IMG/VR virus record: IMGVR_UViG_3300045988_183972
Direction: 5' to 3' (one strand)
From: a virus
DNA: 64,000 bases
This document shows positions 22,014 through 63,816 of the stretch, piece by piece (the stretch's first letter is position 1; the number at the start of each line of letters is the position of its first letter). The notes under the pieces were generated by a model, which saw only the letters and a program-made list of their open reading frames with translations, was not told where the DNA came from and searched no databases. The translations under genes were made by a program, and so were the position numbers.

Positions 22014-23129
22014 ATGGAAAATACAAATACATCTTTAACATTAGATGAAATAATAGAAAAGAACAGAAAAGATTTATTTTCAGAATTAAATGAATTCTTA
22101 GATAATGAAAAGATAACAGATATTGAATGGGATGGCGAACATTTATGGATAACAGAGTTAGGAAAAGGCTGTTATCCTGTTGATAAAAAATTATCTATAG
22201 ATTTTGTGAATAATTTAAGTATCAGATTATCAAATATAATGAAAACTAATTTTAATGCTTTAAACCCTATATTGGAAGCACATACAAAAGAATTAAGAAT
22301 ATCAATCTTTCACGAAAGCAGAACTGGGGAAAAATCTATAACTATTAGGAAAATTCCTACAAATATAAGATATAACCACGAAAAATTAGTAAAAGATAAT
22401 ACAATCCCAGAAGAATTATTAAACCTATTAGAAAATTGTGTTAAAGCACATTGTAATATAGTTGTTGGAGGAAGACCTCACGCAGGAAAAACAGAATTAG
22501 TTAAATACTTATCTAATTTTATACCAGCAAATGAGAAAGTAGTGACATTAGAGGATAATGCAGAAATCCATTATAGAGAAATACATCCTAATAGAAAGAG
22601 TGTATCATTTTTAGTTGATGATAAAGTAACATATTCAGATGCTATTAAGGCTTGTTTGAGACATAATGCTGATTGGTTACTATTATCTGAAGCAAGAGGA
22701 CCAGAGATTATTGAACTTCTTAATGCACTTAGTACAGGAAGTTATTGTATGACGACAGTACACGTAGATGGAGCTAAAGACATTCCTGATAGAATGTATA
22801 ATATGCTTAATAATAGTAGTATAAATGAAAGATTTATCAATAACATATATCGTTATATGGATGTAGGAATAATAATAAAAGCTGATAAAAAAGAAAACAG
22901 AATTATATCAGAAGTTGGATTTTTTAACAGAGCAAATGTTAAGAATGAAGATGGAGAATATGAAATGCAGAACATTTATACACCTTTTTATAATACATTT
23001 GAAGGGTTAAAAGATAAAGATAAGTTACCTATAAATATCCAAAGAGCATTTGTAAGAGAAAATATTAAAAATCCATTTGAAAAACCAGAAATTACTGATG
23101 AAATAAAGGAAGTTTCTGTAAATGGTTAA
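22014..23129 (+). CDS. secretion/pilus-assembly ATPase of the TadA/CpaF/VirB11 (T2SSE) family
   Basis: Walker A VVGGRPHAGKTELVKYL, Asp-box KVVTLEDNAEIHY, Walker B DWLLLSEARGPE, His-box GSYCMTTVHVDGAKDIPDRM in canonical order. Confidence 0.65.
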   Translation: MENTNTSLTLDEIIEKNRKDLFSELNEFLDNEKITDIEWDGEHLWITELGKGCYPVDKKLSIDFVNNLSIRLSNIMKTNFNALNPILEAHTKELRISIFHESRTGEKSITIRKIPTNIRYNHEKLVKDNTIPEELLNLLENCVKAHCNIVVGGRPHAGKTELVKYLSNFIPANEKVVTLEDNAEIHYREIHPNRKSVSFLVDDKVTYSDAIKACLRHNADWLLLSEARGPEIIELLNALSTGSYCMTTVHVDGAKDIPDRMYNMLNNSSINERFINNIYRYMDVGIIIKADKKENRIISEVGFFNRANVKNEDGEYEMQNIYTPFYNTFEGLKDKDKLPINIQRAFVRENIKNPFEKPEITDEIKEVSVNG

Positions 23130-24621
23130 TACATTTAATAAAATAAAAGATTATTTCTCTTTAAAGCAGATGAAAAAAGAAATCTATGGTTATGGTTATA
23201 CTGTATCAGGAATAAAATATTTATTAATGACAATTATAAGTATATTAATAACAATAGGTTTTAGCTTATTATATCAAATGCAGATTGGCTATACAATAAT
23301 AGTTGCGTTCCTATCTTTTGCTGTTATTCCTTTACTAATAAGAGCAAAATTTATTAATTTATATCAGAAAAAACGATTTAATGAAGTAGATATATATTTA
23401 CATCAGATGGTTTATTCATTTCAGAAAAAACCTAAGATATTAACAGCTCTTGAAGATACAGTAAAAGTAAGTACAGGTAAATTAAAAAAGACCTTAGAAA
23501 TAGCTATTGAAAACTTATATACAAGTTCTTCTGAAAGTTTGTATGAAGAGTCATTTAAAATAATAGAAAAAGAATATAATAATTCCAGAGTAAAAGCGTT
23601 AAACAAATATATGTTAAATATAGAAAAAACAGGTGGAGAGTATTCTAATTCTATTAATATTATGCTTGTAGATATTGATAGCTGGATAAATAGAACATAT
23701 ATGGAACAAGCAGAAGTAGAACGTATTAAATTTACCAATATGATAGGTTTATTAATAGGCTTTATAATGGGTAGCGTTTGTTCAATTTTTTCTTATTATA
23801 TGAACCATAGCCAATATGTATCTGTAAATGGAAGTGTAGCTGATGATGTATTATATCAGATTGGATGTTTAGTATTTTTAGTTGTATGTGTATTATTTTA
23901 TACATATACACAAGTTGGATATAACAGAGATTGGGTATCCAAAGAATTAAATAAAAAAACAGTAATGAAAGATTATAAAACAGCAACAGAATTTAATCCT
24001 AACAAGCTTAGAATAATGAGTATACAAATATATATATTTTTCATTATTTTAGCAATAGTTATATATTTTATAAAGGCAATTCCTTTTAGAGGATTTATTT
24101 CTATAGGTCTTATAGCTTTTGATATATATTTAATAATATCACCTAAATTACAAAAAAATGGAGCTGTTGCAAGAACCAAAAAGAACATTCAGAATAGTTT
24201 CTCAGAATGGTTAAGAGATGTTTCATTGAATTTACAAAAAGAACCATTGTTGTCTGCTATTCAGGATACATATGATGAATGTCCTGTAGTATTAAAACCA
24301 GAATTAGAATTATTTTTAACAAGAATAGAAGAAAATCCAACAGCAGTAGAACCATATTATGAATTTTTAGCAAGATTTCGTATTTTAGATATAAGTTCTG
24401 CCATTAGAAATTTATATTCTATCTCAGACAATAATTCAGAAGATATGGATAAACAGTTAAATTCTTTAATAGAAAGAAATTATAGTATTATAAATAAAAA
24501 TGAAATAGCATCATATGAAGATAGAAATGCAGCACTGCATTTTTCTGAAAACATTCCTATAATTATAGCCAGTATTAAGTTGGGAATTGATATGTTAGCT
24601 TTAATTTCAATATTTATTTAA
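23122..24621 (+). CDS. polytopic inner-membrane platform protein (TadB/TadC/T2SSF-like)
   Basis: 499 aa with >=8 hydrophobic helices; start overlaps ATPase stop (ATGG), typical of T2SSE-T2SSF gene pairs. Confidence 0.4.
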   Translation: MVNTFNKIKDYFSLKQMKKEIYGYGYTVSGIKYLLMTIISILITIGFSLLYQMQIGYTIIVAFLSFAVIPLLIRAKFINLYQKKRFNEVDIYLHQMVYSFQKKPKILTALEDTVKVSTGKLKKTLEIAIENLYTSSSESLYEESFKIIEKEYNNSRVKALNKYMLNIEKTGGEYSNSINIMLVDIDSWINRTYMEQAEVERIKFTNMIGLLIGFIMGSVCSIFSYYMNHSQYVSVNGSVADDVLYQIGCLVFLVVCVLFYTYTQVGYNRDWVSKELNKKTVMKDYKTATEFNPNKLRIMSIQIYIFFIILAIVIYFIKAIPFRGFISIGLIAFDIYLIISPKLQKNGAVARTKKNIQNSFSEWLRDVSLNLQKEPLLSAIQDTYDECPVVLKPELELFLTRIEENPTAVEPYYEFLARFRILDISSAIRNLYSISDNNSEDMDKQLNSLIERNYSIINKNEIASYEDRNAALHFSENIPIIIASIKLGIDMLALISIFI

Positions 24622-26041: not shown

Positions 26042-27310
26042 ATGGAAAAAATAAAATATTCAGCTAGTGAAAAAAAGAATAGACATTTGTTATTTGAAAC
26101 TAATAAAAATTTATTTATTACAGGAGCAGGAGGTACAGGAAAATCTACTTTTCTAAATGAATTTATAGAAAAGAACCCTAATACAATAGTAACAGCTCCA
26201 ACAGGAATAGCGGCAGTAAATATAGGAGGAGTAACAACTTTTAATGCTTTTAGTATACCAATACCTTGTTTTGGAGCTACAACAAATAAACTGACTGAAG
26301 CAAAATTAAAGAAGATAATTATGGTTGATAATGTAATTATTGATGAAATAAGTATGTGCAGAGTAGATGCTTTTGTTTATATCACAAAGGTAATTAAAAA
26401 AGCTGAAAAGATAAAAGGTAAGAAGATAAGAATTATTGTTAGTGGGGATTTCTCACAGCTTCCTCCTGTAATTACAGATGAAGATGCTAAAATGTTAAAA
26501 AAATTTGGTTTTCATAAGTCTGGGTTGCCTTTTACTTGTAAAGAGTGGGAAAATTGTCATTTTACTACTATAGAGCTTACAGAAGTTAAAAGACAGGATA
26601 ATCTTGAATTTATAGAAAACTTAAATAAAGCCAGATTAGCAGATAAAAAATGTATAACATATTTTAATCAGTTTGTAACAGATGAAATTCCAGATGATTG
26701 TATTCATATATGTGGAACTAACGCAGAAAGTTCTAAACTTAATAAAGAATATTTGGACTCATTAGAGGGTATGCCATATGCGTATCAGGCAGTAAAACAA
26801 GGAAGAACTACAGGAGCATATGTAGATGATATTATTATTCTTAAAGATGGAGCAAATGTATATTTTACAGTCAATGATATATACGAGCATAAATATGTTA
26901 ATGGAACATTTGGAAAAATACATAAATGTTTTAATGACCATATAGAAGTAGAAGTTGATGAAGAAATAATAGATGTTTACCCACACAGATATTCGGTTTA
27001 TAATTATAAAATTATAAATGGAGTATTAAAGAAAGAAGAAATTGGTTCAGTTTTACAAATGCCTTTAAAATTAGCTAAAGCAATTACTGTGCATAAATCC
27101 CAAGGCAAAACTTTTAATAAAGAAGTGTTTACACCTAAAATATTCGCAGCAGGACAGGCTTATGTTGCATTAAGCAGAGTAAGAAATCCTGAAGGTTTAT
27201 TTTTAACAGAACCTTTACTTCCAGAACAATTAATGTCAGACAGAACAGTACTTAAATTTTATAAAAATAATTATAAATTTGAAAGTAATCGTAAAAAAAC
27301 AGAAAAATAA
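26042..27310 (+). CDS. PIF1/RecD-family (AAA_30) DNA helicase
   Basis: Walker A ITGAGGTGKSTFL, motif Ia VTAPTGIAAVNIGG, Walker B IIDEISMC, C-terminal AITVHKSQGKTF and GQAYVALSRVRNPEGLFL (UvrD_C_2-like). Confidence 0.7.
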   Translation: MEKIKYSASEKKNRHLLFETNKNLFITGAGGTGKSTFLNEFIEKNPNTIVTAPTGIAAVNIGGVTTFNAFSIPIPCFGATTNKLTEAKLKKIIMVDNVIIDEISMCRVDAFVYITKVIKKAEKIKGKKIRIIVSGDFSQLPPVITDEDAKMLKKFGFHKSGLPFTCKEWENCHFTTIELTEVKRQDNLEFIENLNKARLADKKCITYFNQFVTDEIPDDCIHICGTNAESSKLNKEYLDSLEGMPYAYQAVKQGRTTGAYVDDIIILKDGANVYFTVNDIYEHKYVNGTFGKIHKCFNDHIEVEVDEEIIDVYPHRYSVYNYKIINGVLKKEEIGSVLQMPLKLAKAITVHKSQGKTFNKEVFTPKIFAAGQAYVALSRVRNPEGLFLTEPLLPEQLMSDRTVLKFYKNNYKFESNRKKTEK

Positions 27311-27550: not shown

Positions 27551-28582
27551 TTACTCTAATTCATAATTACAATCATCATTATGAGTAATATTTATATCTA
27601 TAATATTGTTATTACAATTTTTTTTAGCTGTTTTTTGGTCTTGTAACAATTTTTTTGCTTTATATAAAAACGTAGGATTATTTTTAATTTGAGCTTTATT
27701 CATATTGTTAATTATATCATTAATTTCATTCATAGATAGTATAGTAATATCATATTTTTTACTAAAGCTATTGTTAGGTATAAAATTAGGATTGTATGTA
27801 TTATATTCTTGTGTTTCTAATATTTCCTGTTTCGTTTCTTTATTAAGATATTTTGATACTTCTTTTTCGTTAAGGGATTTTCCCTGATATAATGCTAATA
27901 TACATATATCATACATAATAGTAGCTTCTAAGTCATTAGCTGGCTTTATATGGTCATATATATTAAGATAACAAGTATCTATTAAAGTAAATATTTCTTT
28001 GTCAGATAAGGATATATTATATAATTCTCGAAAGTTTTGTAATTTAATTTGAACTATGTCATCATATTTTTCTGTTATTTTTAAAACATTTTCATAGGCA
28101 TAGTTAAAAGCTTCACGTTCTAATGAACATAAAACATAAAAACATAAAGCAATTTCTTTACTCTTTATATATAGATTGTTATAATCATTTATATATAAAT
28201 ATGCTTTTTTAGACTGTATATAAAATACATCATTAAATTGTATTATTTTGTTAAGTTTAAAAAACGAATTAGTTTCTATTAATTTATTTTGATGACTGTG
28301 ATATAATTCGTGATATAAGGTGTTATATAATACATAACAATTGTCATCTCTATTAGATGTTAAAAGGTCTGCATTAATTTTTATAATCTTATCATCATAA
28401 GAAAAAAATCCATTTATATCTGGAGAATTAAAGTTTTTAATAATAAGTTTAGAACAGTTATTTGGAATATTTTTCTTTATTTTATCAAAAAGGGAAAAAG
28501 TTATTTTTTCTTTACGATTAATAGATAATATTTTCCAATTTTTAGAAGTGAAATAATCTTCAAGCTTACGTTTAAAAAACAT
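27551..28582 (-). CDS. HExxH-motif protein (putative zincin-like metallopeptidase; ImmA/IrrE- or ArdC-C-terminal-like)
   Basis: 343 aa; TLYHELYHSHQNKL contains HELYH; no other recognisable domain. Confidence 0.35.
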   Translation of the reverse strand: MFFKRKLEDYFTSKNWKILSINRKEKITFSLFDKIKKNIPNNCSKLIIKNFNSPDINGFFSYDDKIIKINADLLTSNRDDNCYVLYNTLYHELYHSHQNKLIETNSFFKLNKIIQFNDVFYIQSKKAYLYINDYNNLYIKSKEIALCFYVLCSLEREAFNYAYENVLKITEKYDDIVQIKLQNFRELYNISLSDKEIFTLIDTCYLNIYDHIKPANDLEATIMYDICILALYQGKSLNEKEVSKYLNKETKQEILETQEYNTYNPNFIPNNSFSKKYDITILSMNEINDIINNMNKAQIKNNPTFLYKAKKLLQDQKTAKKNCNNNIIDINITHNDDCNYELE

Positions 28583-28594
28583 AATAGTTCTCCT

Positions 28595-28936
28595 TTATAC
28601 ATATAAATAAAAAAACGAATGTAAATATTTTTCTTTATCTTTGTAATTATTTTTACAATAATCATTAAAATAAGGCAAACACATTATAAAATCGTGAATT
28701 TGGTTAAAATTATAATCTGAATACATTATATCCCTAATAGATAATCCTTTCACCTTAATATCACTAATATTTTTATTATTTAGCCATTCATAAAAATTAG
28801 GAAGGCATTTATCTGGTATATATTCAGTTCTATTTTTTATAAGCCTTATGGCTTCATCTTCATCATAATCATATCCATCATCATAGGATTGTAATTTTAA
28901 TATCATTCTTTCTTTTAAATCTTTAGGTATGGTCAT
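28595..28936 (-). CDS. hypothetical protein (113 aa)
   Basis: ORF with AGGAGAAATAAAAATT upstream (minus strand). Confidence 0.4.
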   Translation of the reverse strand: MTIPKDLKERMILKLQSYDDGYDYDEDEAIRLIKNRTEYIPDKCLPNFYEWLNNKNISDIKVKGLSIRDIMYSDYNFNQIHDFIMCLPYFNDYCKNNYKDKEKYLHSFFYLYV

Positions 28937-29037
28937 AATTTTTATTTCTCCTTTTATTTTTTATTAAATTGTTTATATGTCTGGTATTATTTTTTCTGTA
29001 TTTTGTTATCATAATATCTTGATTAAAATATAAATAA

Positions 29038-29604
29038 TTACTTATTATTGATTTCCTTTTCTTTATTAAAAAATGCTAACCCTATACAAATACTGTCAGC
29101 AATATCGTCACTAACATCTATATCGTATATTTGTTTTACTAATTCGATAGCTCTATTTTTTAATTCTTTTCTTTTTAATTTTACTTTATTTTCTGAATTA
29201 GGTATTCCTACAGCTTTTCTCCAAACAGTAGGAGAGTAGAAATATATCAAACATCTCTTATGTTCTATTGAATAACTAAGAACTAAGCCTTGTATATGAC
29301 ATAACTTTTTATAAGCATATCCATCTTTTCCCATATAAGTATCTTCAATAACTATTACTTTAGGTTTATATTTTTTTAGATAAATATTAATTCCTTTTAT
29401 CATTTCAATTATTCGATAATCCATATTTTTCTTTTTTATTTCATTTTCCTCTTGTTTATTCATATTTTTATTTGTTTCATAAGGATTATCTGGTTTAATA
29501 TAAGTGTAATCTATAAGTTCTTTTGTATTATAATCAAAAACAGCAATACCAGTATTTGTTGTACTTCCATCTATGCTGATTAAATATTGCTTTATTTTAT
29601 TCAT
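29038..29604 (-). CDS. RuvC-family Holliday-junction resolvase-like nuclease
   Basis: ISIDGSTTNTGIAVFD (RuvC motif I), VIVIEDTYMG (catalytic Glu), C-terminal DVSDDIADSICIGLAF (DxxDA motif). Confidence 0.55.
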   Translation of the reverse strand: MNKIKQYLISIDGSTTNTGIAVFDYNTKELIDYTYIKPDNPYETNKNMNKQEENEIKKKNMDYRIIEMIKGINIYLKKYKPKVIVIEDTYMGKDGYAYKKLCHIQGLVLSYSIEHKRCLIYFYSPTVWRKAVGIPNSENKVKLKRKELKNRAIELVKQIYDIDVSDDIADSICIGLAFFNKEKEINNK

Positions 29605-31219: not shown

Positions 31220-32788
31220 ATGAGTATTGGAATATTTATAGCTGTAGTAGTTGTAGCTTTATTATTAATGAGTTATATAAAAGCACCAACAGATAAGGCT
31301 TTTATTGTATCAGGCTTAAGGAAGAAGCCTAAGTATGTAATAGGAAGGTCAGCACTTCGTATTCCATTTTTACAGAGAGTAGATAAGCTTGATTTAAAAA
31401 TGATTAGTGTTGATGTAAAAACTAAAGAGTCAGTTCCTACAAATGAATATATTAATGTAAATATTGATTCAGCAGTTAAAATTAAGGTTGGTTTATCACC
31501 AGATATGTTAGAAAAGGCAGCTAATAACTTCTTAAATAAAAATGATTTATATATTAGAGACCAGGTTGTTGATGTACTTGAAGGTAATGTTCGTGAAATT
31601 ATTGGGCAGATGAAGCTTGAAGAAATTGTTCAGGATAGAAAGTTATTTGCTGAAAAGGTACAGGAAAACGCTGCTCCAGATATGGAAAAGATGGGTCTTG
31701 AAATAGTAAGTTTTAATGTACAGAATGTTACTGATGAAGGCAATGTTATTGAAAACTTAGGTATTGATAGAGTAGTAAGTATTTCTAAGTCAGCACAGAT
31801 TTCAAGAGCAGAAAGTGAAAGAGATATTGCTGTTGCTAAAGCTAATGCTGAAAAACAGGCTAATGATGCAAGAATTGAAGCAGAAACAGCTATTGCAGAA
31901 AGAAATAACGAACTTGAAATTAAAAAGCAGGAGTTAAAGAAGGCTGCTGATATTAGAAAAGCTGAAGCGGATGCCGCTTATGAAATTCAGGAACAGGAAC
32001 AACGAAAGACTATTGAAATCACAACTGCAAATGCTAATATAGCAAAGCAGGAAAAGGAGATTGAACTTAGAGAAAAGGAAATTGCTGTTAAGGAAAAGAC
32101 ACTTGATGCTGAAATCCGTAAACAGGCAGAAGCAGAAAAGTATGCCGCACAGCAGAAGGCAGATGCAGACCTTTATTTAAGACAGAAGGAAGCAGAAGCA
32201 AAGCAGTTTGAAATTGTTAAACAAGCTGAGGCTAAGAAATCACAGGCAGAAGCAGATAGATTTGCTAAGGAACAGGAAGCAGAAGCTATTAAGGCACAGG
32301 GATTAGCAGAAGCAGAGAGCATTAAGGCTAAAGGTGTTGCTGATGCTGAAAGTATTAAGGCAAAGGGTATGGCAGAAGCAGAAGCTATGGAAAAGAAGGC
32401 AACTGCCTATGAGAAGTATGGTAAGGCTGCTATGACTGATATGATTATTAAGATACTTCCAGAAATGGCAGGACAGATTGCTAAACCTCTTGAAGCCATT
32501 GATAAGGTTACTATTATTGATGGTTGTAATGGTGAAACAGGGGTAGGTTCATTTAGTGGTAATGTTCCTTCAGTACTTGCAAAGACTATTGAATCTGTTA
32601 AGGAAACAACAGGATTTGACCTTACAGAGGTTATGAAAGCTAATACATATGATGCTAAAACAACTAAGAATGTTAATTTTACAGGACTTCCTAATGAAGT
32701 TAATGTAGATGCTTCTAATGTTTCTGATATAGAAGATGTGTTTGAAAATACTGATTTTGATAAGGCTATGAAAAAGCTTTCTGATTAA
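31220..32788 (+). CDS. flotillin-like SPFH/band-7 protein (YqiK/FloA-type) with long coiled-coil
   Basis: N-terminal TM IGIFIAVVVVALLLM, SPFH core (IVSGLRKKPKYVIGRSALRIPFLQRVDKLDLKMISVDVKT...), extended AEAE/KAxG coiled-coil repeats typical of flotillins. Confidence 0.7.
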   Translation: MSIGIFIAVVVVALLLMSYIKAPTDKAFIVSGLRKKPKYVIGRSALRIPFLQRVDKLDLKMISVDVKTKESVPTNEYINVNIDSAVKIKVGLSPDMLEKAANNFLNKNDLYIRDQVVDVLEGNVREIIGQMKLEEIVQDRKLFAEKVQENAAPDMEKMGLEIVSFNVQNVTDEGNVIENLGIDRVVSISKSAQISRAESERDIAVAKANAEKQANDARIEAETAIAERNNELEIKKQELKKAADIRKAEADAAYEIQEQEQRKTIEITTANANIAKQEKEIELREKEIAVKEKTLDAEIRKQAEAEKYAAQQKADADLYLRQKEAEAKQFEIVKQAEAKKSQAEADRFAKEQEAEAIKAQGLAEAESIKAKGVADAESIKAKGMAEAEAMEKKATAYEKYGKAAMTDMIIKILPEMAGQIAKPLEAIDKVTIIDGCNGETGVGSFSGNVPSVLAKTIESVKETTGFDLTEVMKANTYDAKTTKNVNFTGLPNEVNVDASNVSDIEDVFENTDFDKAMKKLSD

Positions 32789-41099: not shown

Positions 41100-43245
41100 A
41101 TGTTTAGTAAAAGAGAGACAGAACTTAATAAAAGGTATATATATACAGAAAGAGGATATATGCACTTAAATGATGTACTTAGTAAAATAAATCAAAAAGG
41201 TCAGATATTTTCATTAAATCCTAATTTTACAACAATAAGATATATAGATAAAAACGAATATGATAATGATGTATATGAATATGTTGAACCAACATTTTTT
41301 GAGGAAAATGAAGATAATAGTAATGAAGACAATCCTAAATTTATAATTATTTCAGCTCCAGGAGCAACAGGTAAAACTGCATTAGCAAAACATATATGTC
41401 GTAAATATAATGGAATATATTGGGATTTGCCAGATACAAAAGTAGCTGAATATAGTTTTCAGGGAACAATTATGGAAGCAGTTGGCAATGATAAAATTAG
41501 TTCCTTTATTCAAAGCTTAATAGATGGTTCTAGTTTTCTGGTTATAGATGCATTTGATGAAGCCGAAACAGGTTCAGGAAGAACAGGTATTGAATTTTTT
41601 TTTAAGAGATTTTAATAATACTACTATAAATAATAAAGAAACTTGTGCTGTATTATTAGCAAGAACCGAAAGTGCATTATTTATAAAGAAATATTTTCAG
41701 GATAATAATATCTCTTATAATCATTATGAGGTAAGTTATTTTGAAGAAGATAATGCAAAAACATATATAAAAAATGGATTAGAAAAGAGAAATATTCCAA
41801 TTACTAATATTGTAAATGAATGTATAGAAGCTCAGTTTGAAGAAATTAAACGAATATTAATGAATAAAAATACTAATTCATTTTTAGGGTATGCTCCAGT
41901 ATTAAATGCTTTGTCAGCTTCATATGATGAAGAAAGAAATACTTTAAATTTACTTAAAAATACATATAATTCAGAAAGTAACTGTCATTTATTAAAAGCT
42001 ATTATGGACTCTTTATTAACAAGAGAACGTGACAAATTTATAAAATCTTTAAAAATAAAGCTATCTAATGAAATAAATAATTTTTCTGATGAAGTTTATG
42101 GTCCTAAAGAACAGATTTTAAGAATTTTTGGACAGGTTTTGTATAATGATAGTAATTTCTTCATAGAGTCTCATAAGGAAATACCTGCTCAATATTATGA
42201 AGAATATTTAGAAGCTGTTAATGCACAATTACCTCAACACCCATTCATAAAATCAAAAGACAAAAATGGTCAGATTAATTATGAATTTACAGGAATTGTT
42301 TTTAGTGATTACATAATATCTTATATGTTGTCATTAGATGATTATAAAGATTTTGCAGAAGAATATGTTTCAGAAAGAAAATATAATCCTTCTCCATTAT
42401 TGATAGAGTTTTATACTATTTTTTCTAAAAATACAATATCAGGTAAAAATATAGCTCTTATGTATAATTCATTAAAAGCACATACACAGACAGGAGATAA
42501 AACATATATTTATATAAATGGTGATAAAAATGATTGTTCTGTTGAATTTTTGCTTGAAAGAAAAAATGTAAAATACCTTTCTATTGAATTTAATATATAT
42601 GATATTCAAAAAGGAATTTATATAAATCAGTTATCAAATTGTTATATTGATATTGGGTCTGATGTTTATGTAGGAGCTGTTAATAGTGAGTCACGTATTT
42701 GCAATTCAATAATTAATTGTAATAGAATAATATGGGGTAGTGAGTATGTCTCAATTGAAGCTTACTCTCCAGGAGAGACTTCTTTAATCTGTGAAGAAAT
42801 GGGCTATATAACCCAGACTATTCCTAAATTTGAAATAAAAACAGATTATGATAAGAATTTTAAAGTGTATTGTCCATCATTAAAAGGATATTATAGATTA
42901 TTACCTTATCTTAATGAAGAAAACAATAATGATAATACTGATGATTTTATTGTTTTTGCAAATGTACTTAGAAGAATTTTTAGTTGCTTGCGTTCTCATA
43001 GTAAAGATGCTCCTGCAAGAAAAATGGATTTCATTGATAATCGTATTATTAATAATAATGAAGCAAAATTAAACATTTTAAAATTCCTTATAAATATAGG
43101 TTTATTATATACAGATGAACAGGATTGGCTTTATAAACTAAAAACAGATGAATTATCAACATATTCTATAAAATGGAATAATGTTCGTGATGGAGATTTT
43201 GCTTCTTTGGAGACATTATATAATAAGTATACTACTGATAAATAA
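41100..43245 (+). CDS. NACHT/STAND-like P-loop NTPase (~720 aa) interrupted by a frameshift in a T9 tract (41595-41603); candidate defence NTPase
   Basis: Walker A SAPGATGKTALAK, Walker B FLVIDAFDEAE (hhhhDxxDE, NACHT-like) in ORF 41100-41615; continuation ORF 41548-43245 in another frame joins across gaaTTTTTTTTTaag. Confidence 0.45.
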
Positions 43246-46678: not shown

Positions 46679-48045
46679 TTTACCGCAATCTCCGAAGCTT
46701 TAGCTTCGGGGTTAAGGTAACAAGATATTAGCCGACCTAAGTCAGCGGAAAGGAGAAATTGATATGATTAAAACCAATAGAGCTATTGTTTATAGATTGT
46801 ATCCAAATAAAAAGCAAGCAGAATTTTTTCAAAAGACTTTTGGATGTGTAAGATTTGTATATAATCAGATGCTTTCCGTTCAAGAAGAACGATATAAAAA
46901 TAATAAAAGTCATCTTAGTAAATTTGATATGAACTTTTATTGTAATCATAATCTTAAAACTGAATATACTTGGCTTAAAGAAATAGATAAGTTCGCTTTA
47001 ACAAATGCAATATATCACTTGGAAGATGGCTACCAAAGAATGTTTAAACATCTTGGAAAACATCCAAAGTATAAGAATAAGCATAAATCAAAGAAATCAT
47101 ATACTACAAATTTTACAAATAACAATATCGAAGTTGGAGAGAATTATATCAAGCTTCCAAAAGTCGGTAAAGTTAAAGCTAAAATCAGTCTTGATACAAG
47201 ATATTTACAAATCAAGTCCGCTACAATTACTCAAAACAGGGATGAAACCTATCAGGTATCTATTCTTTTTGAGATTATAGAAGAAGAACCAGTACAAGTC
47301 ATTCCTACTAAAAATAATACAACTGGTTTAGATTATAAATCAGATGGGTTGTATGTAAGTGATACAGGAGTAGTTGCCAATATGCCACATTATTACAAGC
47401 AGTCTGCGAATAGCCTTGCTAAACAGCAAAGAAAACTTCGTAATAAAGTAATTGGCAGTAAAAATTATTATAAACAGCAGAAAAAGGTCGCTAAAATTCA
47501 TAAACACATAGTAAATCAGAGAAAAGATTATTTACATAAACAATCTACTGCGATAGCCAAACAGTATGCTTATGTATGTGTAGAGAGTCTTAATATGAGA
47601 GCTATATCAAATAAGGGTTTTGGTAATGGTAAAGCTACATTGGATAATGGTTATGGAATGTTTTTAGATATGTTAGCTTATAAATTACAGGAACGAGGTG
47701 GAAAGCTTGTTAAAGTAGATAAATGGTTTCCATCAAGTCAGATATGTAATTGCTGTAGATTCCAAAATCCAATATTGAAAGACCTAACTATTAGGCATTG
47801 GAATTGTCCTAATTGTGGAACAACTAATATAGATAGGGATATAAATGCAGCTAAAAATATAAAACAAGAAGGATTAAGATTGTTAGGTATAGCTTAGTAA
47901 TCTAAAACATGGTAGGTATGGACGATACCGAACCTAAAAGTCTGTAGACATTGTGGGAAAACTACCAAAAGGTGTGATAATAACTGTAATGGATGAAGCA
48001 GGAATCCCTTGAGCTTTAGCTTTGGGGAGCGTCAAAGTAGAAGGA
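46679..48045 (+). mobile_element. IS200/IS605-family insertion sequence carrying only tnpB (IS1341-like), with related subterminal hairpins at both ends
   Basis: Left end tccgaagctttagcttcgggg hairpin (46689-46708), right end cttgagctttagctttgggg (48010-48029); TnpB ORF between; GC-richer than flanks. Confidence 0.65.
46764..47897 (+). CDS. tnpB: TnpB (OrfB) RNA-guided nuclease of IS200/IS605 family
   Basis: N-terminal AIVYRLYPNKKQAEFFQKTFGCVRFVYNQ, RuvC-like motifs, C-terminal zinc finger CNCCRFQNP...WNCPNCGTTNIDRDINAAKNI. Confidence 0.8.
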   Translation: MIKTNRAIVYRLYPNKKQAEFFQKTFGCVRFVYNQMLSVQEERYKNNKSHLSKFDMNFYCNHNLKTEYTWLKEIDKFALTNAIYHLEDGYQRMFKHLGKHPKYKNKHKSKKSYTTNFTNNNIEVGENYIKLPKVGKVKAKISLDTRYLQIKSATITQNRDETYQVSILFEIIEEEPVQVIPTKNNTTGLDYKSDGLYVSDTGVVANMPHYYKQSANSLAKQQRKLRNKVIGSKNYYKQQKKVAKIHKHIVNQRKDYLHKQSTAIAKQYAYVCVESLNMRAISNKGFGNGKATLDNGYGMFLDMLAYKLQERGGKLVKVDKWFPSSQICNCCRFQNPILKDLTIRHWNCPNCGTTNIDRDINAAKNIKQEGLRLLGIA

Positions 48046-56879: not shown

Positions 56880-59552
56880 ATGAATAGTAATAATATTGTT
56901 GAATGTATGTTTTTTGGTCAGAGATTTAATGAAAAGCCTTCTAAAATGGAAACAGGATATATACAGAAGAATATAACGATTGCAAACATAACAATAGAAA
57001 ATTTAGCAGAAGCTCTTGTTAATGGTGCTTCTTTTAGACCAAGCATATTAATAGGGGGACGTACAAAAGATGATTGGAAAAGACAACAGCTTTTTGGTTT
57101 AGATTTTGATAGTGGTGTTTCTATTGATGCATCATACAATAAAGCTATATCATTAGGTCTTATTCCTGTATTTATGTATACTACATTTAGTCATACTTCA
57201 GAACATCATAAATATAGAATGATTTTTTGTACCGACAAAGTCATTACAGATATGGCTTTAAGAGACAAATTCCAAGCTACTCTTATGGGTTTAATGGGAG
57301 ATATAGATAAAGTATGTTTTAACAGAGATAGATTATTTTTTGGAGGAAAAGGTAAAGAAATACTTTTTCCTAATTTCAATGCAAAACTTAATGTAGAAGA
57401 AATTATAGATAAGTATTGGAAAGATGAATTTGAAGTATATATAAAAGGACAAACTAAGTCTAAAAAAAGAAAATTAAAGAAAACAACAGAACCTAAACAA
57501 AACAATTCATTTACTGTTATAAATTATGAGCCAGATATTGATGAAATACCTTATGCAAGTTATCCAGTAAGATGTGTTACCTTAGGTAATTTACGTTGCC
57601 TAAAAAAATATTATGATAGTATTATTTGGGCAGAAGGAATGCACAGAGAAAGATTTATTTTTATTTATTATAACTGTGTTAAATTACTTTATGGTTCAGA
57701 TAGAGCTTATAAAGAATGTATAGAATTAAACAATGGTATGGAAGAGCCGTTAACAGCATATGAATTAAAATCTGCAATAATACATACAGATGAACATATG
57801 GAAAATAAAGATTGGTATAGAAAAGCATTACACGGAGATGGATGTTTTATTTTTAGACCTGAAACAATTATTTCAGATAAATGGTTAAATATAGATGAAG
57901 AAACAGCTATAAAATGTGGATTTTTTGATAATAAAATAAGAAAAGAAAAAATAGAAGAAAATAAAAAGTTAGATACTCTTAGAGATAAAGAAGTAGCTAG
58001 ATTATATTTATCTGGATTAGGTTATAAAAAAATAGTTAATAGCCTTTCTAAAGAATATAAATGTAGTGCATCTACAGTTAAAAGAACTATAGAGAGATTA
58101 GGAATAAAAGAAAGAAATATTTCTTTAGAAGATATAGAGTTTAATGAAAATAAGAAGTATGCCAAACATTCGTTTGGGGTGCCGAAAGTGACTAAACTAG
58201 AAAAAGAAGTTTTTAAGGTAAAGTCTAAAAAAGAAATATCAGATAATAAAGAAGATAATATAGTATTTTTAAATGAAGACTGTAAGAGATTATATGAAAC
58301 GTCTAAAAATGCAGGGTCAGAAAGTAATATTAATGAACAGGAGATAGCTATTGAAACAATATTAAATAATCCTACAGTTAATTACTGTTTAAAAGGTAAA
58401 GCTGGTACAGGTAAAAGTTATTGTATTAATAGTTTATTACAGAGATTAACAGAAGAAGAAAGAAAAAAGACATTAGTAGTAGCTCCAACAGGAGTAGCTG
58501 CTTCTAATATTACATATACAACAGCTCATACAATACATTCAATATTTGAGTTATATACATTCGTACAAAGACAAGATGAACATATTAGGATACCTAAGAT
58601 TTTATTAAATGTAGATAGAATTATCATTGATGAAATAGGTATGGTAAGAAAAGATGTATTTAATCAGTTAGTACGAATTATTAATAATGCTCAAAAATTA
58701 ACAGGTAATAAAATACAGTTAATATTAGCAGGAGATTTTGGACAGATTTCCCCTGTTGTTACAAAAGAAGATAAAACTGTAATGGATATTTATTACAAGG
58801 GAAGTGAAGATAAATATTTCTGTTTTGATAGTCCTTTATGGGATAGTTTAGATATTCATACAATAGTATTAAGAAATAATCATAGACATAATAATGATGA
58901 TTGCGATGAATTACAGAAAGAATTTATTAATATATGTGATGAGATTAAATTTGGAGCTATATCAGGATTAAAATGGTTAAATAATAACTTAAAACATACT
59001 GCTATAGAAGATGGAATATATCTTTGTGCTAATAATAAACAGGTTGATGTTTATAATAAAATGTATACAGATAAATTCACAGATAAAAAGACATATAATG
59101 CTATATGTTTTGGAGTAACAGAAGGAAGAAAATTACCAGTAAAACTTAGTTTAGAATTAGCAGTAGGTATGAAAATAATGACTCTTATTAATACAAAGAA
59201 ATATAAGAATGGTAGTTTAGGAGTAATAACAAAGCTTTATAAGGATAAGATTAAAGTAAAGTTAGATAATACAGGAAAAGAGGTTACTGTAAAATATACT
59301 GAATTTAAGATAAATGAAGAAACTGATGAAGTATTATATCAGTTACCAATAGCTATAGCATATGCTATTACTGTAAATAAAGCACAAGGATTAACATTAG
59401 AGAAAGTAAATATTGTTCCTGGCTTTTTTGCGGCAGGACAATTATATACAGCTATAACAAGAATAAAGAATGTACATAATATTAGTATTATTGGTGAATT
59501 AAAAGAAACTGATTTAGTTGTAGATACAAGAGCATTAAGTTTTATTGCTTAA
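56880..59552 (+). CDS. replication protein: AEP-type primase(-polymerase)-like N-domain, central HTH, C-terminal PIF1/RecD-like helicase
   Basis: N-terminal LFGLDFD (DxD), central LYLSGLGYKKIVNSLSKEYKCSASTVKRTIERLGI (sigma-r4/LuxR-like HTH), helicase motifs LKGKAGTGKSYCI, VVAPTGVAASNI, IIIDEIGMV, AITVNKAQGLTL; GAGAGGAGTATCTGCTAATG RBS. Confidence 0.6.
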   Translation: MNSNNIVECMFFGQRFNEKPSKMETGYIQKNITIANITIENLAEALVNGASFRPSILIGGRTKDDWKRQQLFGLDFDSGVSIDASYNKAISLGLIPVFMYTTFSHTSEHHKYRMIFCTDKVITDMALRDKFQATLMGLMGDIDKVCFNRDRLFFGGKGKEILFPNFNAKLNVEEIIDKYWKDEFEVYIKGQTKSKKRKLKKTTEPKQNNSFTVINYEPDIDEIPYASYPVRCVTLGNLRCLKKYYDSIIWAEGMHRERFIFIYYNCVKLLYGSDRAYKECIELNNGMEEPLTAYELKSAIIHTDEHMENKDWYRKALHGDGCFIFRPETIISDKWLNIDEETAIKCGFFDNKIRKEKIEENKKLDTLRDKEVARLYLSGLGYKKIVNSLSKEYKCSASTVKRTIERLGIKERNISLEDIEFNENKKYAKHSFGVPKVTKLEKEVFKVKSKKEISDNKEDNIVFLNEDCKRLYETSKNAGSESNINEQEIAIETILNNPTVNYCLKGKAGTGKSYCINSLLQRLTEEERKKTLVVAPTGVAASNITYTTAHTIHSIFELYTFVQRQDEHIRIPKILLNVDRIIIDEIGMVRKDVFNQLVRIINNAQKLTGNKIQLILAGDFGQISPVVTKEDKTVMDIYYKGSEDKYFCFDSPLWDSLDIHTIVLRNNHRHNNDDCDELQKEFINICDEIKFGAISGLKWLNNNLKHTAIEDGIYLCANNKQVDVYNKMYTDKFTDKKTYNAICFGVTEGRKLPVKLSLELAVGMKIMTLINTKKYKNGSLGVITKLYKDKIKVKLDNTGKEVTVKYTEFKINEETDEVLYQLPIAIAYAITVNKAQGLTLEKVNIVPGFFAAGQLYTAITRIKNVHNISIIGELKETDLVVDTRALSFIA
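58168..58218 (+). repeat. copy 3 of the conserved ~50-nt motif, embedded in the primase-helicase gene linker
   Basis: cgtttggggtgccgaaagtgactaaactagaaaaagaagtttttaagg. Confidence 0.5.
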
Positions 59553-60161: not shown

Positions 60162-60482
60162 ATGGAGTTTGCAGTACAAAGCAATGTTATTAGAGAACTT
60201 TCAAAACAGCAATATCAGACATTAATGGAATTATGTCAGTATTCAAACAATCTTTACAATGTCGCACTTTACAATATCAGACAATATTTCTTTAATGAGA
60301 AACAGTTTTTAACTTACGAGAGTAATTATCACGAGTGTAAAGAAAATGAAAACTATGCTTTGTTACAAGCAGGAGTTGCACAACAGACTTTAAAAGTCGC
60401 TGATAGAAATTTTAAATCATTCTTTAATCTATTAAAGAAATGTAAAACTGGTGATTATCGTTACCATAAAGTTCACAAGTAG
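60162..60482 (+). pseudogene. truncated N-terminal fragment of a second, divergent TnpB/OrfB-like gene
   Basis: ...LQAGVAQQTLKVADRNFKSFFNLLKK matches the conserved N-terminal region of IS605 OrfB/TnpB proteins; ORF ends after 106 aa with no RuvC/zinc-finger region. Confidence 0.4.
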
Positions 60483-60511: not shown

Positions 60512-60733
60512 ATGCGAAATACTAATTTTGATATTTTACCTGACGAATATACAAAAATACTAATAACAAAAGATAATAAAGATGAAAATAATAATATTGA
60601 AAAGATACCATATTATGATTTCATATATGAGTTATCTAAAGGCAAACAATTATTAGAGTACAAGAGAACTCCTATAAAAGTAAATGAACCTAATATAGAG
60701 CAAGAAAAAATATGTGATATAAAAACACAATAA
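60512..60733 (+). CDS. hypothetical small protein (73 aa)
   Basis: ORF. Confidence 0.3.
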   Translation: MRNTNFDILPDEYTKILITKDNKDENNNIEKIPYYDFIYELSKGKQLLEYKRTPIKVNEPNIEQEKICDIKTQ

Positions 60734-61688: not shown

Positions 61689-61785
61689 AAAATAAAGCTT
61701 CAATATTGTTTTTTATAAAAATATGACAATATATATAAAATAATTAATTTATTTCTTACCAATAAAGAAAAGAGGATAAAAAGCT

Positions 61786-62676
61786 ATGGATAATACAGCT
61801 TTAGCAAAGAGAATGAAAAAATATTATGAAGAAGTACCTAAAACAAGATTAATAAGAAGAATGCCAGTATGTATAAGATTAGATGGAAAAGCATTTCATA
61901 CGTTTTTAAAGGGATTTAAAAAGCCATTTGATGATATATTTATAAAAACAATGCAGGATACTATGAGATACTTATGTCAGAATATACAGGGATGTGTATT
62001 AGGTTATTCACAATCAGATGAAATCAGTTTAATACTTATAGATTATCAAAAACTCACAACAAGTGCCTGGTTTGATTATAATGTTCAAAAGATATGTAGT
62101 GTGTCATCAAGTATGGCTACATTAACCTTTAATAAGCTATTAAAAAACAATGTTGATAAATATAAGGTTGAAAAATGGGATGGAGTTTCAAAGTATAAAA
62201 ATGGAGAAGATGAATATATTGAGACATTATTAAGAGCAGTTGATAAAGGTGCAATGTTTGATAGTAGATGTTTTAATATACCAAAGGAAGAGGTTGCTAA
62301 TTTAATATTCTGGAGACAATTTGATGCAAGCAATAATTCAGTACAAATGGTAGGACAGGCTTATTTTACGCAAGAAGAACTTAATAACAAGAATACTAAT
62401 CAGATACAGGATATGTTAATGACACAGAAAGGTATTAACTGGAATGACTTACCAACTTATCAGAAGAGAGGAAGTTGTTGTGTAAAACATAATTTTTGGA
62501 TTGATAAGAATGATGGTGAAGAATTTAGTAAAGAATATTCAGAAGCATTAGACAGAACTGCAATAGATGAAAATGCTATTAAGAGAACAAAGTGGATTAT
62601 AGATGAAAATATTCCTATTTTTAAAGGTGAAAATAGAAAATATATAAATGATTTAATATTATATAATGAAGAGTAA
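61786..62676 (+). CDS. Thg1-like protein (tRNA-His guanylyltransferase family 3'-5' nucleotidyltransferase, TLP)
   Basis: RMPVCIRLDGKAFHTF and GYSQSDEISLIL match Thg1 catalytic motifs VVRLDGRNFHRF / GQSDEYSF (two metal-binding Asp); AAAGAGGATAAAAAGCTATG. Confidence 0.55.
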   Translation: MDNTALAKRMKKYYEEVPKTRLIRRMPVCIRLDGKAFHTFLKGFKKPFDDIFIKTMQDTMRYLCQNIQGCVLGYSQSDEISLILIDYQKLTTSAWFDYNVQKICSVSSSMATLTFNKLLKNNVDKYKVEKWDGVSKYKNGEDEYIETLLRAVDKGAMFDSRCFNIPKEEVANLIFWRQFDASNNSVQMVGQAYFTQEELNNKNTNQIQDMLMTQKGINWNDLPTYQKRGSCCVKHNFWIDKNDGEEFSKEYSEALDRTAIDENAIKRTKWIIDENIPIFKGENRKYINDLILYNEE

Positions 62677-62691
62677 GAAAGGAATGATAGC

Positions 62692-63261
62692 ATGAAAAAA
62701 ATTCCTACTTTATTTAAAAGAGTTTATAAAGATAATAAAATTATAGATATACTTCCTGAAGTTACTGAAGGTATGGAATGGGGTTTAAAAGGAGAAGGAA
62801 TAGCCACGGTAAAAATAGATGGTTCTTGTAGTGCTATCATTAATGGTGTATTTTATAAGAGATACGATGCTAAAAATGGAAAACCTATTCCTAAGGGAGC
62901 TATTAAATGTCAGGAAGCAGCAGACCCGATTACAGGACATTTGCCTTGCTGGATTAGAGTAGATAAAGACAATCCTAGTGATAAATGGTTTTATGTTGCA
63001 TATCTAAATACATTAAAGGATAAAGAAGACTTAGTAAATGGAACATATGAGGCAATAGGCCCTCATTTTCAAGGAAATCCTTATAATCTATCTGAAGATA
63101 TATTACAAAAACACGGAAAATTTGTAATAGAAGTTGAAAGAAGTTTTGAAGGAATAAAGAAGTATTTATCAGAACATTATATTGAAGGTATTGTATTTTG
63201 GAAAGATGGAGAGCCGAAATGTAAGATAAAAAGGTCAGATTTTGGATTTGAGTGGAAGTAA
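62692..63261 (+). CDS. minimal covalent nucleotidyltransferase (RNA/DNA ligase-like) domain protein
   Basis: Motif I TVKIDGS (KxDG), motif IV EGIVFW, motif V KCKIKR in canonical order; 189 aa; GAAAGGAATGATAGCATG. Confidence 0.45.
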   Translation: MKKIPTLFKRVYKDNKIIDILPEVTEGMEWGLKGEGIATVKIDGSCSAIINGVFYKRYDAKNGKPIPKGAIKCQEAADPITGHLPCWIRVDKDNPSDKWFYVAYLNTLKDKEDLVNGTYEAIGPHFQGNPYNLSEDILQKHGKFVIEVERSFEGIKKYLSEHYIEGIVFWKDGEPKCKIKRSDFGFEWK

Positions 63262-63387
63262 TATAAAATAATAATATAAAAAATAAAAATTATTATAATA
63301 TGTGATATATTTTAGAAAAGGATATAAATTTACCAAGTTCATTGATTAATATTTTTTAAGTTTAAAAATAAAAGGAGAATTTTAGAT

Positions 63388-63816
63388 ATGGGTTCTTATA
63401 CAAATTATAGTATGGAAGTAATAGATATTGATAATAAGGGATATGATGCGTATAAAATGGCAAAATATATGTTAGAAAAAAATAATGAGTCTGAAAAATT
63501 TTATGCTTTTCAATATAACTTAAGAGATTTTATAGAAAATATTGACCCTAAATTTAAAATAGATTATGCATTATGTCTGGATAGTAATAAGAAAACTAAA
63601 TGGTATGATAATGAAGATGAAATGCTAGAATTATCACAAGAATTCCCTGATGTACTTTTTAAATTACACGGAGAAGGTGAAGAGAGTGGAGATATTTGGG
63701 ATAAGTATTTTATGAATGGAAAGATGCAATATTGTCCAGCAGAAATACATATTCCAGAATTCGATAGAAACAAATTAGAAGGAATAAGTCAAGATAATAT
63801 AGAAATGGATAGGTAA
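63388..63816 (+). CDS. hypothetical protein (142 aa)
   Basis: AAAAGGAGAATTTTAGATATG. Confidence 0.4.
   Translation: MGSYTNYSMEVIDIDNKGYDAYKMAKYMLEKNNESEKFYAFQYNLRDFIENIDPKFKIDYALCLDSNKKTKWYDNEDEMLELSQEFPDVLFKLHGEGEESGDIWDKYFMNGKMQYCPAEIHIPEFDRNKLEGISQDNIEMDR

Follow-up and report, generated by a model that had tools for sequence, protein, structure and literature searches.

The window analysed here, a stretch of 64,000 nucleotides from the IMG/VR virus record IMGVR_UViG_3300045988_183972, carries close to its 3′ end two adjacent genes that encode a Thg1-like protein (TLP) and a minimal RNA ligase. By its sequence, the first is a bacterial TLP-type member of the Thg1 family of 3′–5′ polymerases; the second is a covalent lysine nucleotidyltransferase, specifically an RNA ligase of the RLIG1/DUF5565 family. 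We consider it reasonably probable that the locus is an accessory cassette of a conjugative element which supplies two autonomous tRNA/RNA-repair enzymes, probably from a common transcript. The pairing itself, between members of two known RNA-repair families, is lineage-specific and facultative, the ligase being an optional addition and no obligate partner. These assignments are sharper than those of an earlier note on this DNA, which had described a Thg1-like 3′–5′ polymerase and a ligase-like gene as a candidate pair for the repair of tRNA or RNA ends. The main result is a well supported functional assignment for two known families, and the system is not of a new kind: a link between TLPs and RNA ligases was already predicted in 2010, and phage homologues of RLIG1 have been characterized.

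Organization of the cassette

The cassette and its immediate surroundings comprise the following features, numbered from the first nucleotide of the window.

61771..61776, + strand: putative Shine–Dalgarno sequence AGAGGA, 9 nucleotides (nt) 5′ of the TLP start codon, read from the sequence and with a presumed function
61786..62676, + strand: bacterial-type TLP, 296 amino acids (aa), predicted to be a template-dependent 3′–5′ nucleotidyltransferase acting on 5′-truncated tRNA/RNA
62677..62691, + strand: 15 nt intergenic junction, with a GAAAGGA ribosome-binding site at 62677-62683, 8 nt before the ligase ATG
62692..63261, + strand: minimal RLIG1/DUF5565-family ATP-dependent RNA ligase, 189 aa, nucleotidyltransferase domain only
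62670..63356, no strand assigned: segment with the ligase, an indel polymorphism that some near-identical copies of the element have and others lack
63388..63816, + strand: p142, 142 aa, YubB/Api92-like ferredoxin-like fold, third gene of the conserved cassette

Both open reading frames (ORFs), that of the TLP and that of the ligase, coincide exactly with those delimited in the earlier note, and the TLP stop codon is separated from the ligase ATG by 15 nt. This junction, TAA-GAAAGGAATGATAGC-ATG with its GAAAGGA site, has hardly changed in L179 and L183, which are diverged relatives (loci used for comparison are designated by L numbers). A scan for promoters and terminators found no terminator-like site between the two genes; in DNA this rich in A+T the scan is uninformative, returning 32 promoter-like sites where 27 are expected, and no terminators. 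The TLP and ligase genes are probably co-transcribed.

The TLP–ligase pair is found in identical form on at least 13 human-gut metagenome contigs, with sizes of up to the 108 kb of ERZ501984 NODE_9. Beyond these copies, the block formed by the TLP, the ligase and p142 recurs at 82–92% nt identity in four other, diverged contexts (L179/L180, L183 and L264), where the flanking DNA differs, is rearranged or has diverged much further; in L179, the helicase of the backbone shares 63% aa and 74% nt identity with that of the window. In the diverged relatives, the conserved DNA of the block begins ∼15 nt upstream of the TLP ATG, and among close loci p142 follows the ligase in 17 of 18. Ratios of nonsynonymous to synonymous substitution rates (dN/dS), computed among three diverged versions of the cassette, amount to 0.24–0.25 for the TLP, 0.18–0.23 for the ligase and 0.30–0.45 for p142; the TLP and ligase genes are both under purifying selection. 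The truncation of the ligase in L010 proved to be merely apparent and is caused by an assembly gap (a run of N).

The Thg1-like protein

The TLP matches the Pfam Thg1 profile PF04446 far above its cut-off (E = 2e-29; 102.5 bits, cut-off 29.2; profile positions 2–130 of 130) and the family phrog_4717, annotated as 'tRNA-His guanylyltransferase' (8e-83). The best match in the PDB, by a wide margin, is the TLP of Bacillus thuringiensis (BtTLP; 4kgk; 1e-59, 206 bits), compared with 48 bits for the archaeal TLP 5axk and 29–40 bits for Thg1 enzymes of eukaryotes. RLDGKAFH at residue 31 and SQSDE at residue 75, the two motifs on which the earlier note had based its identification of a Thg1-like 3′–5′ polymerase, are both present, and D33, D78 and E79 fall on the carboxylates of the RxDG and SDE motifs in 4kgk, 5axk, 5xox, 3wbz and 7cv1; with these scores and aligned catalytic aspartates, that identification is borne out. 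The three metal-binding carboxylates are unchanged among four relatives, and the protein, its catalytic residues being intact, is predicted to be functional.

The protein is of the bacterial and not the eukaryotic type. The sequence WRQFDASNNSVQ stands where eukaryotic Thg1 has WRQxDCHINNLYN, the eukaryote-specific HINNLYN being replaced by DASNNSVQ as in BtTLP. The match to Pfam Thg1C, at 20.3 bits, stays below the cut-off of 26.3; residues 156–236 nonetheless align to BtTLP (85 bits). Two insertions that BtTLP does not have, at approximately residues 123–155 and 237–260, are variable even between close relatives. The window TLP thus resembles BtTLP (4kgk/4kgm) in its full-length homology, its RxDG/SDE carboxylates, the 'WRQxDASxNS' segment and an alignable C-terminal region; it differs in the two insertions and in being borne by a conjugative element instead of a chromosome, and its activity is a predicted one. 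Template-dependent 3′–5′ addition of nucleotides to 5′-truncated tRNA is described for TLPs (PMC4820378).

The RNA ligase

The ligase matches phrog_14301, annotated as 'RNA ligase', from end to end (6.6e-52). The corresponding Pfam family, RLIG1 (PF17720), is matched just under its cut-off (24.6 bits, cut-off 25) and over residues 112–188 only, a borderline hit; it is also the precomputed annotation of most database homologues of the ligase. The Rnl1/Rnl4-type domain PF09511 (RNA_lig_T4_1) is not matched by the ligase, RLIG1 being matched instead. In a phmmer comparison, the solved RLIG1 structure from Yasminevirus (PDB entries 9c6l/9c6m) is recovered at 4e-12. The motifs quoted in the earlier note, KIDGS at residue 41, EGIVFW at residue 165 and KCKIKR at residue 176, are all present, and this alignment shows that they had been labelled correctly as motifs I, IV and V. 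For both proteins, the quoted motifs exceed by far what chance would produce. The residues K41, D43, R57, E120, H141, E165 and K178 correspond to K73, D75, R89, E174, H195, E240 and K253 of the Yasminevirus enzyme (YspRLIG1), the set defined there as catalytic (PMC11494293); in the phmmer alignment, the chain index of 9c6l is offset by one from the residue numbering of that paper. The motif I lysine, K41, thus aligns with K73, and the suggestion that this minimal gene encodes a covalent nucleotidyltransferase was right. None of the seven catalytic residues varies in 32 homologues, with identities down to 38%, and the ligase, too, appears likely to be functional.

An AlphaFold2 model of the ligase has a predicted local distance difference test score (pLDDT) of 91.5 over 189 aa. 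Foldseek matches the model to 9c6m/9c6l with template-modelling (TM) scores of 0.70–0.75 and a probability of 1.0, at a sequence identity of ∼22%. These are the sole strong matches; the runner-up, an RNA ligase from Naegleria, is distant and weak. The family is large, with 5,148 clusters at E ≤ 1e-3, many of them from gut phages.

The likeness to RLIG1 (C12orf29/DUF5565; Yasminevirus 9c6l/9c6m and human) extends to identical catalytic residues in motifs I, Ia, III, IIIa, IV and V and to a fold of one nucleotidyltransferase (ATP-grasp-like) domain that is accompanied by neither an OB domain nor a separate domain for RNA binding, as predicted by the model in the case of the window ligase. The difference is one of size, with 189 aa in the window ligase compared with 277 aa in the Yasminevirus protein. 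Human RLIG1 has 325 aa. The RLIG1 fold consists of a nucleotidyltransferase domain and no separate RNA-binding domain, and auto-adenylylation and RNA sealing have been reported for the human and Yasminevirus enzymes and for one bacterial and one phage homologue (PMC11494293). RLIG1 ligates RNA ends bearing a 5′-phosphate (5′-P) and a 3′-OH, and not 5′-OH/2′,3′-cyclic phosphate ends; bacterial and phage homologues join tRNA-Lys halves with 5′-P/3′-OH ends in vitro (PMC11494293).

Occurrence of the ligase beside the TLP

A dedicated TLP–ligase pair, as the earlier note had envisaged, is not what the wider comparison revealed. Each scan covered the 80 most similar matches, and the counts are of loci, not of phylogenetically independent lineages. 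None of the 160 related ligase loci (80 viral and 80 genome loci; 57–76% identity) has a TLP within 6 kb, and the ligase of the window is present at none of the 80 viral TLP loci. Among the 80 metagenome TLP loci, L272 only has it, and L272 is the window's own sequence; the two TLP sets together therefore yield one locus out of 160, from the window's own contig. On these figures, a general association of TLPs with RLIG1 was rejected. Ligases at ∼75% identity stand unpaired in ordinary phage contexts (next to RecU/RecA or to portal and major capsid protein genes), and the closest unpaired TLPs lie on large phage contigs. The annotated ligase-bearing phages Collard, RP12, phi10:1 and MT835485 have no adjacent TLP, and in phage Collard none is found within the 55 kb examined (record positions 1–55111).

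The ligase is a presence/absence polymorphism in a single population of elements, because the near-identical sister elements L273 and L274 do not have it. In L273, with a backbone 98.7–99.2% identical in nt, the segment corresponding to window 62670–63356 is replaced by ∼205 bp containing a 65 aa ORF, and p142 is a pseudogene (an in-frame TAA and a deletion). The backbone of L274 is 96–98% identical in nt and is without window 62673–63279; there, an intact p142 (L274:5963-6391) comes immediately after a variant TLP. The same order is seen in L275, in which the TLP is 68% identical and p142 (L275:1276-1335) follows it with no space for a ligase. The TLP is the constant member of these arrangements, and TLP–p142 is the broader association.

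RNA-repair genes near other TLPs

ORFs within 3.5 kb of the TLP in the 80 viral loci were clustered, and the cluster representatives were scanned against Pfam. An RNA-repair-type neighbour is present at 39 of the 80 loci, or at 27 if the less specific Metallophos family is left out. The neighbours counted at the viral TLP loci were as follows.

Metallophos (calcineurin-like phosphoesterases): 26 of 80
PNK-type AAA_33 kinase: 9 of 80
RlaP: 7 of 80
Pnkp-like kinase+HAD protein: 6 of 80
CCA-adding-type enzyme: 6 of 80, the same six as for the Pnkp-like protein
Trifunctional kinase–phosphoesterase–Rnl1 ligase (bacterial Pnkp architecture): 5 of 80, for example L202:7683-9881

NAD-salvage genes also occur near viral TLPs, and Pnkp neighbours are likewise found in the metagenome TLP set. 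The trifunctional protein of L202 has 732 aa and an AAA_33–calcineurin-like phosphoesterase–RNA_lig_T4_1 arrangement; it is also present in L198, L201, L203, L204, L312 and L320, and its position on these large gut-phage contigs is ∼0.8 kb downstream of the TLP. It represents an independent linkage of a TLP to an RNA ligase, of a different ligase family (PF09511). In one group of gut-phage contigs, a Pnkp-like P-loop kinase with a HAD phosphatase and a CCA-adding-type nucleotidyltransferase are located 1–3 kb upstream of the TLP (L005:327-1241; L248, L253, L254, L256, L257 and L260). The linkage to tRNA genes is weak: two of 60 viral TLP loci have one within 6 kb, and in L187 a tRNA-His gene lies 4.4 kb from the TLP.

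Neighbourhoods of this kind have been described. Thg1 genes are accompanied by polynucleotide kinase, Macro and sometimes RNA ligase genes, from which a role in tRNA repair was predicted (Anantharaman, Iyer & Aravind, 2010; PMC2904730); a 2021 survey of jumbo phages counted Thg1 among RNA-repair nucleotidyltransferases (PMC7824862); and in ProFaNA the neighbourhoods of DUF5565 are enriched in RNA enzymes and tRNA genes (PMC10364804). The present locus is like the 2010 neighbourhoods and the RNA-repair islands of large phages in that a TLP stands beside an RNA ligase in a mobile or accessory region with a predicted function in tRNA/RNA repair. It differs in that the ligase is of the RLIG1 and not the Rnl1/Pnkp type, in having no kinase, phosphoesterase or Macro gene and in being carried by a conjugative element (PMC2904730; PMC7824862).

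The carrier element

The window has a G+C content of ∼25%, and nearly all of its genes lie on one strand. It encodes PrgI (362-751), a VirB4-like ATPase (772-3240) that belongs to the Firmicutes 'CD1110 family' and has ∼35% identity to plasmid homologues, and a VirB11-like ATPase (22014-23129); a cell-wall amidase, two Pif1/Dda-type helicases and TnpB are among its further genes. The possibility that the window is a phage was rejected, as its large ORFs give no PHROG structural matches and the conjugation genes PrgI, VirB4 (CD1110) and VirB11 are present. Because conjugation genes are present and phage structural genes are not found, the carrier is a highly divergent Firmicutes-type conjugative element from the human gut, not a phage; the earlier note's view that the two genes are borne by a mobile element stands with this specification. 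A megablast search of the window against PLSDB gave no match. The sister element L273 is part of a 668-kb contig (QFCE01002638.1).

Proposed function and alternatives

In the reading that we favour, the two enzymes act autonomously on separate lesions, the TLP on lost 5′ nucleotides and the ligase on internal nicks. By analogy with BtTLP, the TLP would activate the 5′-phosphate of a 5′-shortened tRNA, or of another RNA with a recessed duplex 5′ end, and would then add the missing nucleotides in the 3′–5′ direction, templated by the opposite strand of the stem. The ligase would adenylylate itself at K41, pass the AMP to an RNA 5′-phosphate and seal this to a 3′-OH, for example at a nick in the anticodon loop of a tRNA. 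Since the TLP(–p142) unit also occurs without the ligase, which is a facultative addition to it, the two enzymes would not make up an obligatory pathway.

Genes for end healing (polynucleotide kinase/phosphatase, HAD_PNKP, Metallophos, 2H and RtcB) were not found among the window ORFs of at least 100 aa or in the 10 kb downstream, and tblastn with two types of Pnkp returned nothing in the cassette loci. Since no kinase or phosphatase was found nearby, the ligase would be limited to 5′-P/3′-OH breaks. Breaks of this kind result from metal-dependent tRNases of the Toprim and PIN types; the Toprim tRNase P2-OLD leaves 5′-P/3′-OH ends on cutting, and its single nicks are sealed by T4 Rnl1 and Rnl2 without healing (PMC12445682). 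The analogy drawn in the earlier note to the repair by phages of anticodon-nuclease damage is therefore incomplete. As with the Pnkp–Rnl1 system that phage T4 directs against the anticodon nuclease PrrC, the concept is that of an ATP-dependent ligase on a mobile element that is able to reseal broken tRNA (PMC11494293). The two cases differ in that the window lacks the end-healing kinase/phosphatase, so that PrrC-type 2′,3′-cyclic phosphate/5′-OH breaks would be out of reach, in that its ligase is without the C-terminal tRNA-binding domain of Rnl1, and in that T4 has no TLP.

The likely benefit would be that tRNAs and translation are kept working when the element or its host is confronted with tRNA-damaging toxins or defence nucleases. 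A protective role of this kind for the conjugative element, directed against toxins or defences, is plausible. Of the two roles suggested in the earlier note, RNA repair is the best reading of the locus, and counter-defence is one that we infer from it. If the cassette does repair tRNAs, RNA-repair counter-measures would extend from lytic phages to conjugative elements in gut Firmicutes. In that case, the two genes would also be a compact natural combination with which to ask whether translation is protected by 3′–5′ polymerases and minimal ligases when metal-dependent tRNases (PARIS/OLD/VapC-type) are at work, and which role the TLPs of mobile elements play in vivo. The sister elements with and without the ligase provide a ready-made comparison and are, together with the conserved p142, the most useful leads.

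Several observations weigh against this assignment of two autonomous repair enzymes. No tRNA genes are present in the 64-kb window, and neither the window nor the 10 kb downstream of it contains a recognizable tRNA nuclease, anticodon nuclease or end-healing enzyme. The ligase is dispensable in sister elements and the third gene, p142, is functionally unassigned, so the selective logic of the cassette may differ from tRNA repair. Finally, the locus counts describe the most similar matches in each scan, which are not phylogenetically independent. Four other explanations were considered, all of which we rate below two autonomous repair enzymes.

One, which we regard as improbable, makes the two enzymes consecutive steps of a single pathway. 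A nuclease would excise one or more nucleotides in a paired region of a tRNA, the TLP would rebuild them onto the 5′-phosphate of the downstream fragment with the opposite strand as the template, leaving a 5′-monophosphate, and the ligase would seal the remaining nick. The adjacency of the genes, the conservation of the 15-nt junction with its Shine–Dalgarno sequence and the intact cassette in four diverged contexts speak for such a sequential gap-fill, and the chemistry fits, both enzymes using RNA 5′-phosphate ends through a 5′-adenylylated intermediate (PMC2904730; PMC11494293). There is also a precedent for refilling by a nucleotidyltransferase before ligation, in RlaP with RNA ligases (PMC7824862). 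Chemically possible as it appears from the two families, the pathway is weakened by the dispensability of the ligase, in that near-identical sisters keep the TLP without a ligase (L273 and L274, and likewise L275), and by the lack of a general linkage of either family to the other; moreover, the TLP requires a template strand, so lesions in loops, such as excision of the wobble base, would not be restorable. Less probable still is a fuller version in which the TLP and the RLIG1-type ligase cooperate in reverse-direction RNA gap repair and p142 might be the substrate-binding or regulatory partner of the TLP. If true, gap repair would be a way for a conjugative element to undo 'repair-defying' damage to tRNAs, such as excision or trimming of nucleotides by defence tRNases, that lies beyond simple ligases.

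Chance juxtaposition, to which we likewise assign a low probability, would mean that two unrelated accessory genes from the gut-phage pool have come to lie side by side in a mosaic, the ligase acting on RNAs unrelated to those of the TLP or neither enzyme repairing damage. The region is indeed a mosaic of small cassettes that are rearranged between relatives, the ligase is an indel polymorphism, and the closest unpaired ligases (∼75% identity) and TLPs are found in ordinary phage contexts and on large phage contigs, respectively. This explanation has to contend with the tight and conserved junction and with the fact that both families are tRNA/RNA end-processing enzymes. Neighbourhoods of a TLP and an RNA ligase also recur independently, with the trifunctional Pnkp in 5 of the 80 viral loci and several metagenome loci, and the link had been noted before (PMC2904730).

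A role in tRNA maturation, in which the TLP would add G-1 to tRNA-His or process tRNAs of the element encoded elsewhere and the ligase would be incidental, is very unlikely. In bacterial tRNA-His, G-1 is normally genome-encoded. The family name and annotations ('tRNA-His guanylyltransferase') and the single viral TLP locus with a tRNA-His gene 4.4 kb away (L187) suggest such a role, against which stand the bacterial type of the window TLP (no HINNLYN; closest to BtTLP), the 0 tRNA genes in the 64-kb window and the finding that a tRNA gene lies within 6 kb at only two of 60 viral TLP loci. That the cassette belongs to a defence or toxin system modifying the nucleic acids of competitors, as the GNAT, Tpt1-like, ADP-ribosylglycohydrolase and HipA-like (PDC-M03A match) genes near the cassette but outside the window might suggest, has next to no probability in our estimate: in PADLOC-DB v2 (E ≤ 1e-3), neither the three cassette proteins (TLP, ligase and p142) nor the 185-aa membrane protein encoded upstream gave a match, the chemistry of both families is constructive, that is, one of repair, and the cassette contains no nuclease or effector.

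p142 and other features of the element

p142 matches phrog_6306 (1e-25), and its AlphaFold2 model has a pLDDT of 84.9. A fold search of the PDB gave no significant match; the matches in BFVD are phage proteins that are uncharacterized or annotated as 'YubB ferredoxin-like' and provide no functional lead. Homologues of p142 form 63 clusters and are otherwise found in arrays of small hypothetical genes. On the 120-kb contig L268, a PF09414 RNA ligase and a 'Sequestin' family gene lie near a p142 homologue (L268:1-418 and L268:918-1163), in an array of small hypothetical genes that has the appearance of an anti-defence or accessory region.

The DNA beyond the end of the window has accessory or toxin–antitoxin-like content. 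It includes a GNAT acetyltransferase (L006:13515-13964) and a HipA-like kinase (L006:19514-20740) that matches the PADLOC candidate PDC-M03A (2e-16), toxin-like functions that target the translation apparatus in other systems. Some 5.8–7.1 kb past the ligase (L006:17397-18687), a 118-aa protein corresponding to the C-terminal (NAD-binding) lobe only of the Tpt1/KptA RNA 2′-phosphotransferase (25.7 bits, cut-off 26) is followed directly by a 302-aa ADP-ribosylglycohydrolase; this half-size lobe and the glycohydrolase could be an ADP-ribosylation toxin/antitoxin pair or a module for the ADP-ribosylation of nucleic acids.

Within the window, the Pif1/Dda-type helicases are encoded at 56880-59552 and 26042-27310. 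The 890-aa helicase has an extra N-terminal domain (approximately residues 15–208) matching phage helicase/primase-like PHROGs and may be the replication or transfer helicase of the element. The TnpB at 46764-47897 is full length (OrfB_IS605/Cas12f-like TNB domain), and a 106-aa ORF 1.3 kb upstream of the TLP (60162-60482), which matches solely the N-terminus of that transposase family, is probably a TnpB remnant. In L274, the region of this remnant is replaced by a 479-aa AAA-type protein, the C-terminus of which equals the 73-aa ORF at window 60512-60733. A 1,481-aa ORF at 4228-8673 has no Pfam or PHROG match, and other large ORFs (11531-13378, 15945-17474, 23122-24621 and 41548-43245) are similarly unannotatable. 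An SPFH/flotillin gene lies at 31220-32788, and SPFH/Band_7 genes also occur at most 3.5 kb from TLPs on phage contigs (L240:9268-10239; L232:10121-11617). The sole stretch of the window with genes on the minus strand, 27551-29604, contains three ORFs and coincides with the single bin in which the GC skew and AT skew are negative, in a profile that is otherwise strongly positive.

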